This document shows, in pieces, positions 50,041 through 56,548 of a stretch of DNA of 64,000 nt. The notes beneath the pieces are model-generated. The model was not told the DNA's origin, ran no database searches, and saw only the letters and a program-made list of their open reading frames with translations. A program made the translations under genes and the position numbers. This DNA is from Holophagales bacterium (GTDB lineage Bacteria > Acidobacteriota > Thermoanaerobaculia > Multivoradales > UBA5704), in contig JANMTS010000065.1 of NCBI GenBank assembly GCA_031390755.1, forward strand, positions 3,205 through 67,204, read 5' to 3'. Each line of letters opens with the position of its first letter. Positions within the stretch are counted from its first letter, which is position 1.

Positions 50041-51027
50041 TCAGCGGTTGCAGTCGGGTGCCGGCGAACCCTTCTTCAGGACGACGCTGCTTCCCGGCAC
50101 GGGTTTGCCTTGATCGTCGAAAAAGCCCACGGTCAGGGTTTCCTGGTCCGCTTCGAGCACGGTGAACCCGTGCATGCTCTTGGCCCATTGCCTGCACGTT
50201 GAGGTTTTCAACGGCCGCAGTTTCGTGCCGCCGCCGCCGGAGACGAAGAACCAGACTCCGCCCTCCGGCTTGAGCGCCTCCAGGTCGTGGTCGTGCCCGG
50301 CAATGTAGACATCGACCTTGTTCTGCTTGAGAACCTCCAGGATTGTGCCCTTCACCTCGGGAATCACCCCCTGATCCCCGCCATGTTTGCCGTTGGTGTA
50401 GATCGGATGATGTCCATAGACCACCTTCCAGGTGGCTTTGCTGGCGGCGAGAGACTCTTTCAACCACTTCATCTGGGCTGGAACGGAAGGCTGCCCCTTC
50501 GCAATGGGATCGGTATCGATGGCGAAGAACTGCACCGGCCCGGCGACATACGTGTAGTACGGCTTCGGCAGGCACCAGGTCTGGCTCAGGGACGAGCGTT
50601 TCATTTCGGCGGGCGGGCTCGCTGCATCGTAGTAATCATGATTTCCGAGGGTTGCATAGACCCGGATGCCGAGATCGGAGTACAGGTTCTCCCAGTCGGT
50701 CTGCCAGCGTGGATGAGTGTCAGAATTCAGCCCATTCTCGTAAAAGTTGTCTCCCAGGGTGATGCCGAAGTCATACGGCTTCTGCGCCTCCATCCCGGTC
50801 GCGACCCTCTGCTGGGGCGCTTTCCCGGTCCCGAAGTCGCCAAACGCCAGAACTCTCAGCGTGCCGGAGACGGGAATCTCGGGGATGCCGGGTCCGGCCT
50901 GCATCAGTTGCGGGCAGATGTCGCCGGGGACAGGGGGACCAGCGGTTGCCAGAGTCCTGGACTCGGAACCGGACGAGCCGCAGGACGCGAGCAGGACTGC
51001 GAGAACAGTCAGCACGAGCTTTCTCAT
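50041..51027 (-). CDS. lipoprotein metallophosphoesterase (purple acid phosphatase-like)
   Basis: Lipobox LAS-C; GDFG, GDNFY, GNHD, GHH, GHDH. Confidence 0.9.
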   Translation of the reverse strand: MRKLVLTVLAVLLASCGSSGSESRTLATAGPPVPGDICPQLMQAGPGIPEIPVSGTLRVLAFGDFGTGKAPQQRVATGMEAQKPYDFGITLGDNFYENGLNSDTHPRWQTDWENLYSDLGIRVYATLGNHDYYDAASPPAEMKRSSLSQTWCLPKPYYTYVAGPVQFFAIDTDPIAKGQPSVPAQMKWLKESLAASKATWKVVYGHHPIYTNGKHGGDQGVIPEVKGTILEVLKQNKVDVYIAGHDHDLEALKPEGGVWFFVSGGGGTKLRPLKTSTCRQWAKSMHGFTVLEADQETLTVGFFDDQGKPVPGSSVVLKKGSPAPDCNR

Positions 51028-51226
51028 GGACAGAAACCTCCTTGGGCCAGGTAGACGGACAACATCCGCCGAGTCCCTTCCGTTGAGTCGACCTTCAGGG
51101 TTTTGACCACCAATCAGGTTCGGCGCGGATACCATAGGCTGTCCTCCCGGCCGATGGCAACGTGCATTCCGCGTCCTGCCGGGAGAAGCAGCTCCATTCG
51201 GCCATTCAACTCCATCCGAGGTGACC

Positions 51227-51811
51227 ATGGACGTAGACAAGGCGATTGAGACCCAGCTCAAGAACATCCAGACGAAGACCGGGAAGTCGCTGGACGAGCT
51301 GTTCGGCCTGATCCGGCAGACCGGACTCCAGAAGCACGGCGAGATGCGCGACTGGCTCAAGACGAACCTGGGCCTGGGGCACGGGGATGCCAACACCCTC
51401 GTCCACGCCTACACGAAGGCTAGCATCGCCGGCACCGCCGCCGCGGCACCGGCCGGGGACACGGCGCCCTCCGCCGACGTGCTGGACGAGATCTACTCGG
51501 GACCGAAAGCGGCTCTCCGTCCGATCCACGACCGGCTCATGGCCGAGATCAATGCCTTTGGCCCCTTCGAAATCGCCCCCAAGAAGGGCTACGTCAGCCT
51601 GCGCCGCAAGAAGCAGTTTGCGATGATCGGACCGGCCACGAAGACCCGCGTCGAGGTCGGCCTGAACATGAAGGGCGTCGACGGAACCTCCCGCCTTCTG
51701 GCCCAGCCCGCCGGAGGCATGTGCCAGTACAAGGTGAACGTCACCGGCGCCGCCGAGGTGGACCCCGAGCTGATCGCCTGGATCCGGCAGGCGTATGAGG
51801 GAGCCGGGTAG
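51227..51811 (+). CDS. DUF4287/DUF5655 domain protein
   Basis: NIQTKTGKSLDE..KHGE...WLK...GLGHGDAN; PKKGYVSLRRKKQFA. Confidence 0.85.
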   Translation: MDVDKAIETQLKNIQTKTGKSLDELFGLIRQTGLQKHGEMRDWLKTNLGLGHGDANTLVHAYTKASIAGTAAAAPAGDTAPSADVLDEIYSGPKAALRPIHDRLMAEINAFGPFEIAPKKGYVSLRRKKQFAMIGPATKTRVEVGLNMKGVDGTSRLLAQPAGGMCQYKVNVTGAAEVDPELIAWIRQAYEGAG

Positions 51812-52053
51812 GGGGGCTTCGCAGGGCCGGGGAAAGGGGCTTTCCCCCGATCCGGCATCAACCCGGAAGAATTCGGCGTGAACGCGAAAGCATCCGTCGT
51901 GAACGCGGAAGCGTCTCGCCGGACTGCCATTCCAGAAGGAAACGGCATCCGGGAAAGATGGAACGGCCGCCCCGTCAGGCGGGATACGGCTCAGGCAAAA
52001 GGAACGAGATCTTGGGGGAGTGGGACGAGCCCCAGGGTATCGCACCGGCCCGT

Positions 52054-52305
52054 CATTCCATCCGCCCGGGCCTCCATACCTTCTGGAATCACCGCCATGC
52101 CTTTTGGAATGGCGCCTCGGGTATCGACCCGAGCGGCCATTCCATCGGGTATGGCTCCCATTCCCGTTTCCCGAGCCCCCATACCTTTTGGGATGGGCGC
52201 CATTCCATCGGGAATGGCGCCTCGGGTAAAGGGGATGGCCGTCCGGGAATCGGGGATGACGGTCATTCCATCGGGAATAGACGTTCATCCATCGGGGATG
52301 GGAGC
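52054..52305. repeat. 21-bp periodic degenerate array (12 units, fading to ~51850)
   Basis: Consensus CATTCCATCGGGAATGGCGCC in exact 21-bp register (e.g. 52054, 52138, 52201, 52264). Confidence 0.8.
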
Positions 52306-52543
52306 GCTAGAATGCGGTACGACACCCGTTCCCGAAGGGAGCGACAGCGCCATGATCCGAGGTGGGAGGGGGGGGCCACCGACTTCGGTCGCCGCGGTTG
52401 TCGACGATCCGAACTGAGCGTTTCGCCCCCCAGCCGGCTCTCTCGGTCCCTTTGTGTTTCCGCCGCCAGGAATCTTTCCTCGGGCAGTTTGCGGCGATCG
52501 GGCATCTTTACTCGCTTTCCGCAAGTATGAGAGGATCGCCGCC

Positions 52544-53464
52544 ATGCCCTCCATGGCGCACGAAATCCTCGTGGATCTGTTCAAGAACCGTCCTTCGCTC
52601 GCCGCCGAGATCCTGGTCGAGGTGCTCGGGGTGTCGCTTCCGGACTACACCGAAGCCCGCATCGTCTCGGCTGACCTGAGCGAGATCCAACCGGCCGAGT
52701 ACCGCGCCGATGCCGTGGTCGTGCTTCTGGACGGTGACGTCTCTGTCCGCGTGATCATCGTCGAGGTCCAACTGGCGCCGGACCCTCGAAAGCGGATGAG
52801 CTGGCCTGCCTATGTGACGGTCTCCCGGGCCATTCACGGCTGCCCGGCGACCCTCCTCGTCGTCGCGCCGGACCCGGTCGTCGCCGGATGGTGTGCGGAA
52901 GCTATCGAAACCGGCACTCCCGGCTTTGTGCTGCGTCCGCCCGTCCTGCGGCGCACCGCTGTGCCGGTCGTGACGGACCTCGCGGAGGCGTCCCGCCGTC
53001 CCGAGCTCGGCGTGCTCTCGGTCATGGCGCACGGCGATTCCGAGCAGGGAGCGACGATCGCCGCAGCGGTGTTGCCCGCGATTCGGGATCTCGATGAGGA
53101 CCGGGCGAGGTTCTACTACGACCTCGTATACAATTCCATGAACGACGCGGCCCGCCGCGCGTTGGAGGAGACGATGAAGGGTTACGAATACCAGAGCGAT
53201 TTCGCGAAGAAGTACGTTGCCCAGGGGCGCAACGAGGGACGCAACGAAGGGCTTACGGAAGGGCTTACGGAAGGACTTACCAAGGGCCGCACCCAAGAGG
53301 CGGCGCGCAATCTTCTGGCGGTCCTTCGGGTTCGCGGGATCGCGGTTCCGGACACGGTCCGCGAGCGCATCCTGGCCCAGAAGGATCCGGAGCGACTGGA
53401 GCGCTGGCTGGAGAAGGCCGCGGTGGCGTCTTCGGTCGCCGCGGTTCTCGACGATCCGAACTGA
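52544..53464 (+). CDS. Rpn-like PD-(D/E)XK nuclease family protein, intact copy, with internal SD+ATG at 53164-53176
   Basis: HEILVDLFKNRP, EYRADAVV..VEVQL catalytic-type motif, EGRxEG repeats, C-terminal LERWLEKA. Confidence 0.8.
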   Translation: MPSMAHEILVDLFKNRPSLAAEILVEVLGVSLPDYTEARIVSADLSEIQPAEYRADAVVVLLDGDVSVRVIIVEVQLAPDPRKRMSWPAYVTVSRAIHGCPATLLVVAPDPVVAGWCAEAIETGTPGFVLRPPVLRRTAVPVVTDLAEASRRPELGVLSVMAHGDSEQGATIAAAVLPAIRDLDEDRARFYYDLVYNSMNDAARRALEETMKGYEYQSDFAKKYVAQGRNEGRNEGLTEGLTEGLTKGRTQEAARNLLAVLRVRGIAVPDTVRERILAQKDPERLERWLEKAAVASSVAAVLDDPN

Positions 53465-53590
53465 GCGTTTCGACCTCCAGCCGGCTCTCTCGGCCCCTTT
53501 GTGTTTCCGCCGCCGGGAATCTTTCCTCGGGAGGCTTGCGAGAATCGGGCATCTTTACTCGCTTTCCGCAAGTATGGGAAGATGGCCGCT

Positions 53591-53914
53591 ATGCCCTCCA
53601 TGGCGCACGAAATCCTCGTGGATCTCTTCAAGAACCGCCCTTCGCTCGCCGCCGAGATCCTGGCCGAGGTGCTCGGGGTGTCGCTTCCGGACTACACGGA
53701 AGCCCGCATCGTCTCGGCTGACCTGAGCGAGATCCAACCCGCCGAGTACCGCGCCGATGCCGTGGTCGTGCTTCTGGACGGTGAGGTCTCCGTCCGCGTG
53801 ATCATCGTCGAGGTCCAACTGGCGCCGGACCCTCGAAAGCGGATGAGCTGGCCTGCCTATGTGACGGTCTCCCGGGCCCTTCACGGCTGCCCGGCGCGTT
53901 GGAGGAGACGATGA
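53591..53914 (+). pseudogene. N-terminal fragment of Rpn-like copy 2 (310-bp internal deletion)
   Basis: Near-identical to 52544-52849, then joined to the equivalent of 53160; frameshifted, stop overlaps the next ATG. Confidence 0.8.
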
Positions 53915-54189
53915 AGGGTTACGAATACCAGAGCGATTTCGCGAAGAAGTACGTTGCCCAGGGGCGCACCGAGGGACGTAACGAGGGACGTAACGAGGGA
54001 CGCGCAGAGGGACGCACCGAAGAGGCGGCGCGCAATCTTCTGACGGTTCTTCGGGTTCGCGGGATCGCGGTTCCGGACGCCGTGCGCGAGCGCATCCTGG
54101 CCCAGAAGGATCCGGAGCGCTTGGAGCGCTGGCTGGAGAAGGCCGCCGTGGCGTCTTCGGTTGCCGCGGTTCTCGACGATCCGAACTGA
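53911..54189 (+). CDS. stand-alone C-terminal Rpn cassette (RpnS-like, 92 aa)
   Basis: GGAGGAG SD then ATG; intact ORF MKGYEYQSDF...LDDPN. Confidence 0.7.
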   Translation: MKGYEYQSDFAKKYVAQGRTEGRNEGRNEGRAEGRTEEAARNLLTVLRVRGIAVPDAVRERILAQKDPERLERWLEKAAVASSVAAVLDDPN

Positions 54190-54315
54190 GCGTTTCGCCC
54201 CCCAGCAGGCTCTCTCGGCCCCTTTGTGTTTCCGCCGCCAGGAATCTTTCCTCGGGAGGCTTGCGAGAATCGGGCATCTTTACTCGCTTTCCGCAAGTAT
54301 GGGAAGATGGCCGCC

Positions 54316-54720
54316 ATGCCCTCCATGGCGCACGAAATCCTCGTGGATCTGTTCAAGAACCGCCCTTCGCTCGCCGCCGAGATCCTGGCCGAGGTGCTCG
54401 GGGTGTCGCTTCCGGAATACACGGAAGCCCGCATCGTCTCGGCCGACCTGAGCGAGATCCAACCCGCCGAGTACCGCGCCGATGCCGTGGTCGTGCTTCT
54501 GGACGGTGAGGTCTCTGTCCGCGTGATCATCGTCGAGGTCCAACTGGCGCCGGACCCTCGAAAGCGGATGAGCTGGCCTGCCTATGTGACGGTCTCCCGG
54601 GCCCTTCACGGCGGCCCGCCGCGCGTTGGAGGAGACGATGAAGGGTTACGAATACCAGAGCGATTTCGCGAAGAAATACGTTGCCCAGGGTCGCACCGAG
54701 GGACGCACCGAGGGACGTAA
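54316..54720 (+). pseudogene. N-terminal fragment of Rpn-like copy 3 (308-bp internal deletion)
   Basis: Near-identical to 52544-52840, then joined to the equivalent of 53149; frameshifted. Confidence 0.8.
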
Positions 54721-54928
54721 CGAGGGACGTAACGAGGGACGCGCAGAGGGACGCACCGAAGAGGCGGCGCGCAATCTTCTGACGGTTCTTCGGGTTCGCG
54801 GGATCGCGGTTCCGGACGCCGTCCGCGAGCGCATCCTGGCCCAGAAGGATCCGGAGCGGCTGGAGCGCTGGCTGGAGAAGGCCGCCGTGGCGTCTTCGGT
54901 CGCCGCGGTACTCGACGATCCGAACTGA
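54638..54928 (+). CDS. stand-alone C-terminal Rpn cassette (RpnS-like, 96 aa)
   Basis: GGAGGAG SD then ATG; intact ORF with one more EGRx repeat than copy 2. Confidence 0.7.
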   Translation: MKGYEYQSDFAKKYVAQGRTEGRTEGRNEGRNEGRAEGRTEEAARNLLTVLRVRGIAVPDAVRERILAQKDPERLERWLEKAAVASSVAAVLDDPN

Positions 54929-55054
54929 GCGTTTCGACCCCCCCTCGGCTCTCCTGAGCGCATCGTCAACGTACACTGCGTTCAGGCCGACCAGCCCCGG
55001 CCAAGAAGGGCCTAAAGCCTCCGCGGTCACGAAGGTAGGTCGGGTTCCTCGTTC

Positions 55055-55452
55055 TCGTTCACGCCCATACGAAGGCCTCGACAGCCACCGCGGCACCGGC
55101 CGGGGACGCGGCGCCCTCCGCCGACGTGCTGGACGAGATATACGCCGGCCCCAAGGCCGCTCTCCGTCCGATCCACGACCGGCTCATGGCCGAGATCGAC
55201 GCCTTCGGTCCGTTCGAGGTCGCTCCCAAGAAGGGTCAGCCTGCGGCGGAAGAAGAGTTCGCGATGATCGGACCGGCCACGAAGACGCGCGTCGAAGTCG
55301 GGCTGAACATGAAGGGCGTCGAAGGAACCTCCCGTCTCCTGGCCCAAGCCGCGGGAGGCATGTGCCAGTACAAGGTGAACGTCACGGACGCCAGCGAGGT
55401 CGACTCGGAGCTGATCGCCTGGATACGGCAGGCGTACGAGGGAGCCGGATAG
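55055..55452 (+). pseudogene. 5'-truncated duplicate of the DUF5655 gene
   Basis: Highly similar to ~51398-51811; N-terminus missing; compensating 5-nt and 1-nt deletions scramble the KKGYVSLRRKKQF motif. Confidence 0.8.
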
Positions 55453-55540
55453 ACCAGCCTCGCGACAGCGGCATACCGGGCGCCCTAAAAAGTGACGTGA
55501 AGTCGTTACCAATTTTGGCCAAGATCCCACGGATAAGGGA

Positions 55541-56548
55541 CTACTTCGCCACTGCCAGGATCCGTTCGATCGCCTTGGAGTCCGCCGGCAGCAGGCCGGC
55601 GGCGGGGAGGCGGGGGACCAGCTTCGCCCAGCGCGGCTCGCGGGCGAACACGTCCTTGAACAGCGGCAAGGCCTTGTCCTCCTGGCCCGCCACGAAGAGC
55701 GTGACCGCCTGCCAGAAGGGCAGCTCCGCGATCTCCGGCGCCATCGCCGTCGCCTTCGTGTAGTGGCCGAGCGCCGCCGCGAAGTCGTTCTTCGCCACGG
55801 CCTCGTCGCCCAGGTTCATCTCCTGATACGCCCGATGGAGTCCGAGCAGCCGCCGCAGCTCGATCAGCGGCGCGGGGTTGTCGTCCACCCGCAGATCGAC
55901 GATGCCGTCGTTCCAGGGCTCGCCGCTCGACCTGCCCTTCACCACGATCAGCGCCGCGCTCTGGCGCCCGCGGATGTCGCCGCCCTCGGCCTCGGCCGCG
56001 TCGAGCGCGGCGAGCAGGCGGTCCGCGAGATCGCCCTTGGCGGCTTCGAACGCGCGCGCCATGGCCGGCCAGACCGTCGCCTTGTCCATCAGGTTCGCCT
56101 GCACGGAATACCCGCCGGAATAGCCGCCGCCGGTCTGGTGGCCGGCCGCCGCAATGCACTTCGGACCGGTCCACGCCGCGGCGCGCCCCTGCGCGTCCAC
56201 CATCGCCACCTGCCGCACGTCCTTCTGGGGATCCTGGGCCAGCAGCAGGTCCAGCGCCTCCTGCGCGGACTTGCCCTTCCGCATCAGCTCCAGACCCTTC
56301 GGGCCGTAGTCCACCTTCACGAACGACTGCGTGGCCACGGCTCCGACCCCGGCCTCGGCCCAGGGCACGCTCGGCCCCACCTGGAACCAGTGGCTCTGGA
56401 CCGCCACGCCGAAGTCGCCCGTCGCCGGATCGCGGGCCACGATGGAGTAGGTGTGCGCGAGGGGATCGGACGCCTCGGCGCCCGTCGAGGTCAGCAGGAT
56501 CAGGACGATCAGGGCGGTGAGCCAGGTGGAGCGGGGCATGCGGGCCAT
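55541..56548 (-). CDS. DUF1028 (Ntn-hydrolase-like) protein with C-terminal TPR
   Basis: Signal peptide; TYSIVARDP..FGVAVQS, GAVATQS, GGDIRGRQSAAL, DLRVDD. Confidence 0.9.
   Translation of the reverse strand: MARMPRSTWLTALIVLILLTSTGAEASDPLAHTYSIVARDPATGDFGVAVQSHWFQVGPSVPWAEAGVGAVATQSFVKVDYGPKGLELMRKGKSAQEALDLLLAQDPQKDVRQVAMVDAQGRAAAWTGPKCIAAAGHQTGGGYSGGYSVQANLMDKATVWPAMARAFEAAKGDLADRLLAALDAAEAEGGDIRGRQSAALIVVKGRSSGEPWNDGIVDLRVDDNPAPLIELRRLLGLHRAYQEMNLGDEAVAKNDFAAALGHYTKATAMAPEIAELPFWQAVTLFVAGQEDKALPLFKDVFAREPRWAKLVPRLPAAGLLPADSKAIERILAVAK

Follow-up and report, generated by a model that had tools for sequence, protein, structure and literature searches.

The Rpn proteins of enterobacteria are toxic nucleases restrained by products of their own genes: small RpnS proteins, translated inside the rpn genes, block the toxic long nuclease, RpnL (Zhong et al. 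2023, PNAS, PMC10400941; commentary PMC10400984). That paper describes four-residue repeats that begin 8-20 residues past the internal Met, with a number that must match between the long (L) and the small (S) protein, and it attributes arrays of rpn genes to tandem direct duplication. It also reports that a further RpnS can be encoded on its own behind the long gene, namely ypaA (rpnESs) after rpnE and rpnCSs after rpnC; the origin of these downstream copies is posed as a question, and the Discussion speculates that RpnL itself may drive recombination (PMC10400941). The RpnA-S dimer has been solved (PDB 7TH0); the RpnS/DUF4351-type domain is a three-helix bundle with a long first helix. Here we describe an array of Rpn-like units in a 64,000-nucleotide (nt) stretch of DNA from a Holophagales bacterium (assembly GCA_031390755.1, contig JANMTS010000065.1, positions 3,205 to 67,204 of the forward strand), which is called the window below.

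We conclude, at a probability of roughly 0.6 for the whole statement, that the first unit of this array is a working Rpn-type two-in-one toxin-antitoxin gene, and that the two units behind it are spare antidote genes of the RpnSs type, which arose by duplication and microhomology deletion. The parts of this statement that concern anatomy and homology are much firmer than the functional part. The arrangement is already known from E. coli; the locus is a clear new example of it, and no new mechanism or type of system. A full-text literature search, which did not cover the supplement of Zhong et al. (SI Appendix Fig. S1B, Dataset S1) where such arrays may be shown, found no later work on arrays of units that encode the small protein only (S-only units).

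The long gene resembles E. coli RpnL/RpnS in its N-terminal PD-(D/E)XK domain with the D...E-x-Q signature, in its predicted C-terminal helical domain with hypervariable four-residue repeats, and in the Shine-Dalgarno (SD) sequence and ATG inside the gene; many paralogs per genome and a patchy distribution are common to both. Unlike RpnL/RpnS, the window protein has no match to PF04754, PF14261 or the NCBIfam Rpn models, belongs to a separate large clade found mainly in Thermoanaerobaculia-type Acidobacteriota, and is encoded outside a defence island. The S-only open reading frames (ORFs) resemble RpnSs (ypaA) in that they follow the long gene in the same orientation, derive from duplication, start at the same Met and can differ in repeat number. 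Unlike RpnSs, they occur here as two units, each with a 126-nt spacer and a stub of ~100 residues, with an ATGA overlap in the first of them, and the intermediate state of tandem duplication followed by microhomology deletion of the nuclease core is still visible. As in the tandem rpn arrays, the units stand head to tail, without inverted repeats or target-site duplications; unlike in those arrays, only one full gene is left, and an all-intact version with five copies occurs in a relative (G074:C12). Orphan toxin-tip/immunity arrays are known from contact-dependent inhibition (CDI), Rhs and bacteriocin loci, and silent-cassette stores from systems such as pilS. Our locus shares with them the tandem partial copies downstream of one complete gene and the difference in the variable module. 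Unlike in those arrays, however, the module kept is the antidote/oligomerisation part of an intracellular toxin rather than a delivered toxin tip with its immunity gene, the start signals are retained, and no exchange is seen.

Results

Anatomy of the array

The array occupies positions 52381-54943 of the plus strand and consists of a 37-nt remnant of a gene tail, one intact gene for a protein of 306 amino acids (aa) and two tandem duplicates, called units 1 to 3 (Table 1). Reading of the sequence together with the ORF list places the ends of the stop codons at 52417, 53464, 54189 and 54928, and a spacer of 126 nt separates each of the first three from the next ATG. A repeat search and an alignment of the three units give start-to-start spacings of 1047, 725 and 739 nt with 93-94% identity over 300 nt, and the repeats within the array (more than 700 nt, 93-97% identity) are far above chance. 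Only unit 1 holds a whole ORF. Each duplicate has kept the spacer in front of it and an N-terminal stub, and also the GGAGGAG-ATG together with a C-terminal ORF of 92 or 96 aa that is intact; the stretch that carries the SD and the ATG, GTTGGAGGAGACGATG, is unchanged in them. Compared with unit 1, their small ORFs are 88-91% identical at the protein level, and their stubs and spacers 97% and 89-91% identical at the DNA level, respectively; units 2 and 3 are 96-99% alike over the compared segments. In unit 2, the TGA of the stub overlaps the ATG of the small ORF. Homology continues for 15 nt beyond the last stop.

Among 36 distinct full-length copies in the loci compared, 32 have no such tail upstream, and the other four lie in two tandem arrays, this one and that of G074.

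A preliminary description of this DNA had set out the four unit ends and the conserved 126-bp spacer, which we find to be correct to the base. Its account of a single intact unit with an internal GGAGGAG-ATG at 53164-53176, followed by two units without the middle of the gene that keep the SD, the ATG and a small ORF with distinct repeat strings, also agrees with the sequence and the ORF list. Of its extent, 52381-54953, the left end stands; the homology stops at 54943, and the leftmost of its units is the 37-nt tail only.

Table 1. Positions of the array features in the window
Feature	Position	Strand	Basis
Tail remnant, last 37 nt including the stop of an otherwise lost upstream unit	52381..52417	+	matched by the 3' ends of units 1, 2 and 3 in the alignment
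Spacer 1, 126 nt, presumed to carry a terminator plus the promoter/5' region of unit 1	52418..52543	+	repeated at 53465-53590 and 54190-54315, 89-96% identity
Unit 1, intact 306-aa Rpn-like long protein (RpnL-like): predicted PD-(D/E)XK N-domain, helical middle, repeat helix, C-terminal helices (ATG at 52544, stop ending at 53464)	52544..53464	+	ORF, homologs, AlphaFold2 model, hhalign
Left copy of the imperfect direct repeat, ACGGCTGCCCGGCG, start of both deletions	52836..52849	+	sequence, unit alignment; the paralog on contig C94 is 5'-truncated here too
Right copy of the direct repeat, ACGCGGCCCGCCGCG, end of both deletions, just 5' of the SD	53145..53159	+	sequence, unit alignment
Internal SD GGAGGAG (53164-53170) and ATG (53174-53176), Met211	53164..53176	+	sequence, conservation in relatives
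Unit 1 internal ORF, 96-aa RpnS-like predicted product; repeats RNEG-RNEG-LTEG-LTEG-LTKG at 53228-53287	53174..53464	+	sequence, 12-nt tandem repeats
Spacer 2, 126 nt	53465..53590	+	unit alignment; its left part joined to unit 1 by 196-nt run contig
Unit 2 stub ORF, 107 aa: residues 1-102 and 5 frame-shifted codons	53591..53914	+	match to query 1-102, 97%
Unit 2 S-only ORF, 92 aa; four repeats, RTEG-RNEG-RNEG-RAEG	53911..54189	+	ORF list, codon comparison
Spacer 3, 126 nt	54190..54315	+	unit alignment
Unit 3 stub ORF, 134 aa: ~99 native residues, then a shifted frame that crosses the start of the small ORF	54316..54720	+	match to query 1-101, 95%
Unit 3 S-only ORF, 96 aa; five repeats, RTEG-RTEG-RNEG-RNEG-RAEG	54638..54928	+	ORF list, codon comparison, predicted pairing with the long protein of unit 1
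Right end of the array, 15 nt matching the start of the spacer	54929..54943	+	unit alignment; crossed by 268-nt run contig

Predicted internal start and four-residue repeats

The internal SD lies 3 nt 5' of the ATG at 53174. Conservation is described from an alignment of 48 sequences, A2, made up of the window protein and 47 full-length homologs that were selected by eye from 150 listed representatives. Met211 is present in 38 of the 48 members and replaced by Val in 5 more, and it is the sole conserved internal Met; the N-terminal Met itself is found in 36 of 48, so the two are equally conserved. A GGAGG-containing context precedes the ATG at most of the S starts listed from relatives, which we do not count separately because the SD overlaps conserved Leu-Glu codons.

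At E<=0.001 there are 1200 short homologs (52-168 aa). Of the best 120, 47 have the internal Met as their first residue, and a further 18 begin 1-4 residues ahead of it. Lengths in the group of 47 run 80, 84, 88 ... 116 aa, except for one of 134 aa. We infer that the internal start of unit 1 is translated.

The first repeat starts at residue 19 of the small ORF, within the range of 8-20 residues past the internal Met known for RpnL/RpnS, and in the DNA the series appears as 12-nt tandem repeats. The strings differ between the units (Table 1), and unit 3 has the same number, five, as the intact gene. In the structural model of the small protein (mean predicted local distance difference test, pLDDT, 73.7), a long helix at residues 9-53 is followed by three short helices. 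When Foldseek compared this model with the PDB, no structure reached E<=0.001 and 7TH0 was absent from the list.

Deletions and the direct repeat

Residues ~103-205 are lost from both duplicates. The deletion is 310 nt in unit 2 (junction 53896|53897) and 308 nt in unit 3 (junction about 54611-54613), and both are out of frame. The crossover falls within the imperfect direct repeat ACGGCTGCCCGGCG/ACGCGGCCCGCCGCG in each case; for unit 2 it is placed at the end of this repeat, for unit 3 close to the beginning. Because the crossover points differ within one direct repeat, the two deletions are most simply explained as two independent events. A third Rpn-like copy of this genome, L003 (G000:C94:75984-79451, 1500-2199), is without the first ~97 residues and keeps the SD-ATG with a 116-aa small ORF of ten repeats. 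Its 5' truncation and the left ends of the two deletions thus put three breakpoints at one GC-rich motif, within ~20 nt of one another.

The exact pattern of the deletion junctions gave 0 matches in metagenome contigs and 0 in genome contigs, from which the records of the window's own genome may be excluded. A clustering of right-hand breakpoints just 5' of the internal Met was also seen across relatives; it is mild, the loci were hand-picked and the tblastn ends are fuzzy, and it is not used as evidence.

The long protein appears to belong to a divergent Rpn-type branch

The unit-1 protein has a large family. At E<=0.001 we found 1617 proteins (among 8000 candidates scored) and 5452 clusters at 50% identity. 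The best 120 homologs are 73-88% identical to it and 290-330 aa long, with lengths that step by four residues; 119 of them cover 99-100% of the protein and one covers 93%. Where an organism is named, it is Thermoanaerobaculia or Acidobacteria, and four of the 120 carry the JGI label 'predicted transposase YdaD'. Within A2, residues H6, D56, E74, Q76, W87, Y90, V106 and W288 are invariant (48/48).

The AlphaFold2 model of the long protein has a pLDDT of 93.5 and a predicted template modelling score (pTM) of 0.76. In a structure search independent of Foldseek, residues 1 to ~140 resemble PD-(D/E)XK nucleases, with NucS (2vld) as the best match (Z 8.4, root mean square deviation 3.1, 102 residues aligned), followed by AF1548 (1y88, Z 7.0), PaqCI (8em1, Z 6.7) and a group at Z 5.8-6.2 with SdaI, R.BspD6I, McrC and Can2 (2ixs at Z 6.2); these values are modest, and a Z below 8 can reflect a common arrangement. 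Foldseek with the whole model against the PDB returned weak nuclease rows, none at E<=0.001, and no relevant match came from PDB sequences, whether by phmmer or by profile search. The model and the conserved residues together point to an N-terminal PD-(D/E)XK nuclease domain with a putative catalytic Asp and Glu-x-Gln.

The link to Rpn comes from the same genome, in which six canonical PF04754 genes score above the cut-off (L058-L063; contigs C166, C98, C104 and C76). Each has a DUF4351-like tail and four-residue repeats (EGRQ/EGRE/EGLQ) in varying number. Two distinct Rpn-type families co-exist in this genome. A profile of the six canonical paralogs, A3, aligns with A2 from end to end by hhalign (probability 97.9%, E 3.2e-13, 295 columns), with D56 and E74-x-Q76 in register with the D and E-F-Q of canonical Rpn and with the C-terminus of the window protein on the DUF4351-bearing tails. 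DUF4351 (PF14261) itself is matched by 2 of the 48 A2 members (best E 1.3e-8) and not by the window protein; PF04754 is matched by none of the 48. Because the two profiles match end to end with the Asp and the Glu-x-Gln in register, the name Rpn-like, used in the preliminary description, is right in the sense of remote homology, although the protein has no match to the curated Rpn models and stands outside the Pfam family as currently defined. The window gene thus appears to be a member of a divergent acidobacterial Rpn-type branch that current family models miss.

Related loci in this genome and in the bacterial family

This genome has two intact long genes, 95% identical to each other; the array gene has five repeats, and its counterpart on contig C107 has two. 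Three further remnants could encode S, namely units 2 and 3 and the ten-repeat copy on C94. The repeat numbers of its five S regions are therefore 5, 4, 5, 2 and 10.

Among 92 genomes of the bacterial family, 64 have matches to the long protein; 18 regions were picked by eye from the match lists for comparison. The S part as query gave 231 matches in 59 of the 92, and residues 1-102 gave 121 in 44, these figures being matches and not copy numbers. By a hand count, 39 of the best 150 S-part matches listed are in open frames below 200 aa, several of them at contig ends. Broken copies are common, with C-terminal pieces that start anywhere from residue ~78 to ~215, frameshifts and in-frame stops. 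Core-deleted forms that keep S also occur: residues 40-123 are joined to 216-306 in G071:C73, and 1-45 to 203-306 in G002:C718.

The preliminary description had proposed a survey of homologs for similar arrays, and such layouts indeed recur. A long gene is followed by one or more S-only genes in four other genomes (G037:C36, G060:C11, G041:C321 and G021:C529). In G037:C36, an 88-aa S-only gene with its own GGAGG-ATG starts 72 nt past the stop of the long gene. G060:C11 (L049, 843200-846500; 748-1296 minus strand) has an intact long gene and then two S units in one 183-aa frame; the second S unit has its own ATG, and the frame may encode one protein with S in tandem or consist of two small genes, one nested in the other. 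In both G041:C321 and G021:C529 an S-only gene stands 31 nt past the stop of the long gene; the two are orthologous, with a ratio of non-synonymous to synonymous rates (dN/dS) of 0.44.

The array of G074:C12 (L040, 664500-672500) lies on a 1.24-Mb contig and comprises five tandem copies, all intact; counted up to the RTEE unit, their repeat number is 3 to 8. Two types of repeat region, LSEG-LAKG-RTEGn and RTEG-LTEG-LTKG-RTEGn, alternate along it with differing repeat numbers, which suggests duplication of a two-gene super-unit. In its first copy the frame continues beyond the usual stop.

Signs of selection on the S-only ORFs and predicted binding

Over 92 aligned codons (69 synonymous and 207 non-synonymous sites), the small ORFs of units 2 and 3 show 7 differences, every one of them synonymous. 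The chance of such a 7:0 pattern is ~6e-5 if a quarter of changes are synonymous, and ~2e-3 at a generous 40%. Four of the changes fall on the side of unit 2 and three on that of unit 3; unit 2 has thus acquired only synonymous changes (4:0) despite the lack of a four-repeat long gene in this genome. Five of the seven differences occur in one unit only, which makes it unlikely that they came from other paralogs of the genome. The stubs, with 3 synonymous and 1 non-synonymous change, are uninformative. These codons suggest that the small ORFs are under purifying selection. Their products would probably supplement the supply of antitoxin or buffer it.

For a complex of the long protein of unit 1 and the small protein of unit 3, structure prediction gave a score of 0.68 (0.68, 0.68 and 0.70 in the single runs), and for the best of three controls 0.00. 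The mark for this score is reached by 58 of 80 solved complexes and by 2 of 110 mismatched pairs, counts that are rough here, with custom alignments in use. At least 90% of contacts are common to the runs, and the pLDDT of the partner is at least 80. The predicted interface joins L220-264/282-294 to S10-54/72-84, i.e. repeat helix on repeat helix, in register. Because the RpnA-S dimer has been solved and close cousins also pass, the score may reflect likeness, and it cannot separate a four-repeat from a five-repeat partner. Within these bounds, the model supports binding of the unit-3 small protein to the unit-1 long protein.

The most serious alternative is plain decay, in which units 2 and 3 would be dying duplicates of no function whose small ORFs remain open since the deletions are recent and stops are rare in GC-rich DNA. 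The frame-shifting nature of both deletions fits such a view, and so do the frequency of broken copies of every kind in the bacterial family, the lack of a four-repeat partner for the unit-2 product, and junctions that are seen nowhere else. No RNA run was present among the public sequencing runs found to hold the stretch, which is likewise compatible with decay. However, decay does not readily account for seven synonymous differences against none of the other kind, five of them private, nor for two independent deletions that both end within a few bases 5' of the SD. In addition, the S-only genes downstream of long genes in the four other genomes are intact and diverged, and one pair is conserved between two species. 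We therefore regard decay as rather unlikely.

A second alternative is that the S-only units form a reservoir of C-termini from which recombination would supply the intact gene and so re-tune its L/S specificity, or that they protect, in the manner of orphan immunity or anti-addiction modules, against related RpnL toxins on incoming elements. Homology does flank the variable repeats on both sides, for 67 nt upstream (97-100%) and ~165 nt downstream, the repeat number varies over the five S regions of the genome, and the four- and ten-repeat copies are without a resident partner; recombination driven by RpnL has been speculated on, as mentioned above. Yet there are only two cassettes; unlike silent stores, both have an upstream region, an SD and an ATG of their own, so they look expressed and not silent. 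No conversion tract was found, five of the seven differences between the cassettes are private, and the LTEG/LTKG-type repeats of unit 1 occur in neither of them. A segment-wise scan of identity and of synonymous divergence (dS) for mosaic S regions showed nothing clear: its values (dS 0.26-0.29 for S vs 0.05-0.07 for the stub) are inflated by misaligned repeat codons, and the scan was dropped. The swappable library of C-termini or orphan-immunity array of the preliminary description is accordingly not borne out, and we consider it very improbable.

Reliability of the assembly

The genome derives from a metagenome and is 98.7% complete, with 4.0% contamination and 185 contigs. A short-read assembler might have falsely threaded paralogs or strain alleles of a multi-copy gene into a tandem array. 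The public runs that best hold the stretch are metagenomes of one study; their contigs here are 37-268 nt long, none spans the array, and several carry other letters or fit two places, which together with the 96-99% likeness of units 2 and 3 would favour such an error. They leave positions 51900-52327, 54468-54574 and 54682-54788 without cover, and they lend no support either to the link between units 2 and 3 or to the unit-3 junction.

Several links are nevertheless supported. A 196-nt contig of run X2 (53319-53514, 0 differences) joins bases specific to unit 1 (53324, 53354, 53356, 53395-96 and 53422) to spacer bases specific to unit 2 (53473 and 53476), and in a 268-nt contig of X1 (54871-55100, 0 differences) the end of unit 3 is continuous with the unique right flank. 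Contigs of 57-76 nt from X2, X3 and X5 cross the unit-2 deletion junction; the support is partial because the 27 nt on the right side fall under the 31-nt rule. Assemblers usually collapse repeats and do not expand them, and comparable arrays stand on long contigs of relatives, the five copies of G074 and a long gene with two S units on a 2.07-Mb contig of G060, so that an artefact seems very improbable.

Surroundings and expression signals

The neighbouring genes encode an AMP-binding enzyme, an FAD-binding oxidoreductase, a QPRTase, a metallophosphoesterase, a DUF4287/DUF5655 protein, a DUF1028 protein, a GGDEF protein, a transporter and a TonB receptor. A scan of 51800-55500 for sigma-70 promoters gave 0 sites. 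Terminator-like sites are not above those in shuffled sequences (5 vs 2.9 +/- 1.6), with a weak hairpin at 52433-52447, and Rfam at its gathering threshold gave 0 matches in 51000-56000. Six of the ten same-genus genomes with a DUF1028 ortholog were compared; in all six, the 2-9 kb alongside it hold no Rpn-like, DUF4287/5655, phosphoesterase or QPRTase gene, and no empty site could be defined.

Directly 5' of the array, at 51840-52380, lies a cluster of palindromes like repetitive extragenic palindromic (REP) elements, with a 21-nt periodicity; a perfect example is GGCGCCATTCC-ATCG-GGAATGGCGCC at 52196-52221. With up to 3 mismatches allowed, the genome contains 8 sites of this pattern vs 0 for a reversed control. 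Two are on this contig, and the six elsewhere are on contigs without any Rpn or Rpn-like match. The array and the palindromes are flanked by a complete DUF4287+DUF5655 gene (51227-51811) and a partial second copy of its 3' part. This direct duplication spans ~390 nt (51434-51822 and 55081-55463, 88% identical); the copy corresponds to residues 57-194, with 80% aa identity and a small indel near 55235-55255.

Discussion

We tentatively propose the following course of events for the interpretation favoured above. The full-length RpnL-like protein would be a PD-(D/E)XK DNA endonuclease with D56 and E74-x-Q76 as catalytic residues, and its last 96 residues would also be made separately, from the internal GGAGGAG-ATG. 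The RpnS-like small protein may pair through its repeat-bearing long helix with the same helix of the long protein, and thereby restrain the nuclease. The gene would then have been duplicated in tandem, and slippage or recombination between the GC-rich direct repeats of 14-15 nt would have removed ~310 nt from two copies. Such a deletion would take out the fourth core strand and the helical middle domain, shift the frame and so disarm the toxin, while leaving in place the upstream region of the unit and the small ORF with its SD and ATG. The outcome would be two stand-alone antitoxin genes of the RpnSs type, units 2 and 3, which resemble ypaA downstream of rpnE and would have been retained by selection. 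Toxicity, neutralisation and any role in phage defence are inferred for this locus. Of the enterobacterial proteins the preliminary description had stated, in agreement with PMC10400941, that they are toxic anti-phage nucleases inhibited by an internally translated C-terminal RpnS.

Several observations weigh against this interpretation. A Pfam scan of the window protein gave 0 families at E<=0.01, and at E<=10 just Yae1_N and Cnd1, below the cut-off; no Rpn model was matched in NCBIfam, where weak FliH rows reached 19 bits against a cut-off of 192, and PADLOC (v2) gave no match. The sub-threshold Yae1_N and FliH matches trace to the repeat helix and indicate no meaningful family for the long or the small protein. 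The link between units 2 and 3 is without independent support from the runs. The synonymous-only pattern amounts to seven sites, and alleles of two strains assembled as units 2 and 3 would produce the same. By the published rule on repeat number, the four-repeat product of unit 2 has no cognate long protein here, the intact long genes having five (this locus) and two (C107) repeats. Finally, the locus is outside any defence island, though a defence setting is a tendency of the family and no requirement.

The preliminary description went further in proposing that the locus amplifies and diversifies the antitoxin. The two retained RpnS-like ORFs, their differing repeat number and the signs of purifying selection agree with this idea; as a novelty it does not stand, such copies having been reported already (PMC10400941). 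It is conceivable, if quite doubtful, that the S-only cassettes are selected for repeat numbers that differ from or duplicate those of the resident nuclease, either as a stand-alone antidote repertoire against RpnL arriving on plasmids or phages, or as donor DNA for re-tuning specificity. If there is such an antidote repertoire, the GC-rich direct repeat that flanks the nuclease core would make toxin-disarming deletions recurrent.

As it stands, the locus may be regarded as a natural snapshot of how a stand-alone RpnS originates, i.e. through tandem duplication, deletion of the nuclease core between short direct repeats and retention of the antidote ORF under selection. The duplication-deletion step bears on the question of origin that Zhong et al. 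raised (PMC10400941). The five S variants of this one genome, with 2, 4, 5, 5 and 10 repeats, make up together with its two intact long genes a panel for the rule of repeat-number specificity. Beyond this locus, a very large Rpn-like clade, with thousands of clusters and many copies per genome in Thermoanaerobaculia-type bacteria, is unrecognised by Pfam, NCBIfam and PADLOC and is a candidate for a new family model. Because the curated models miss this clade, current surveys probably undercount Rpn proteins.

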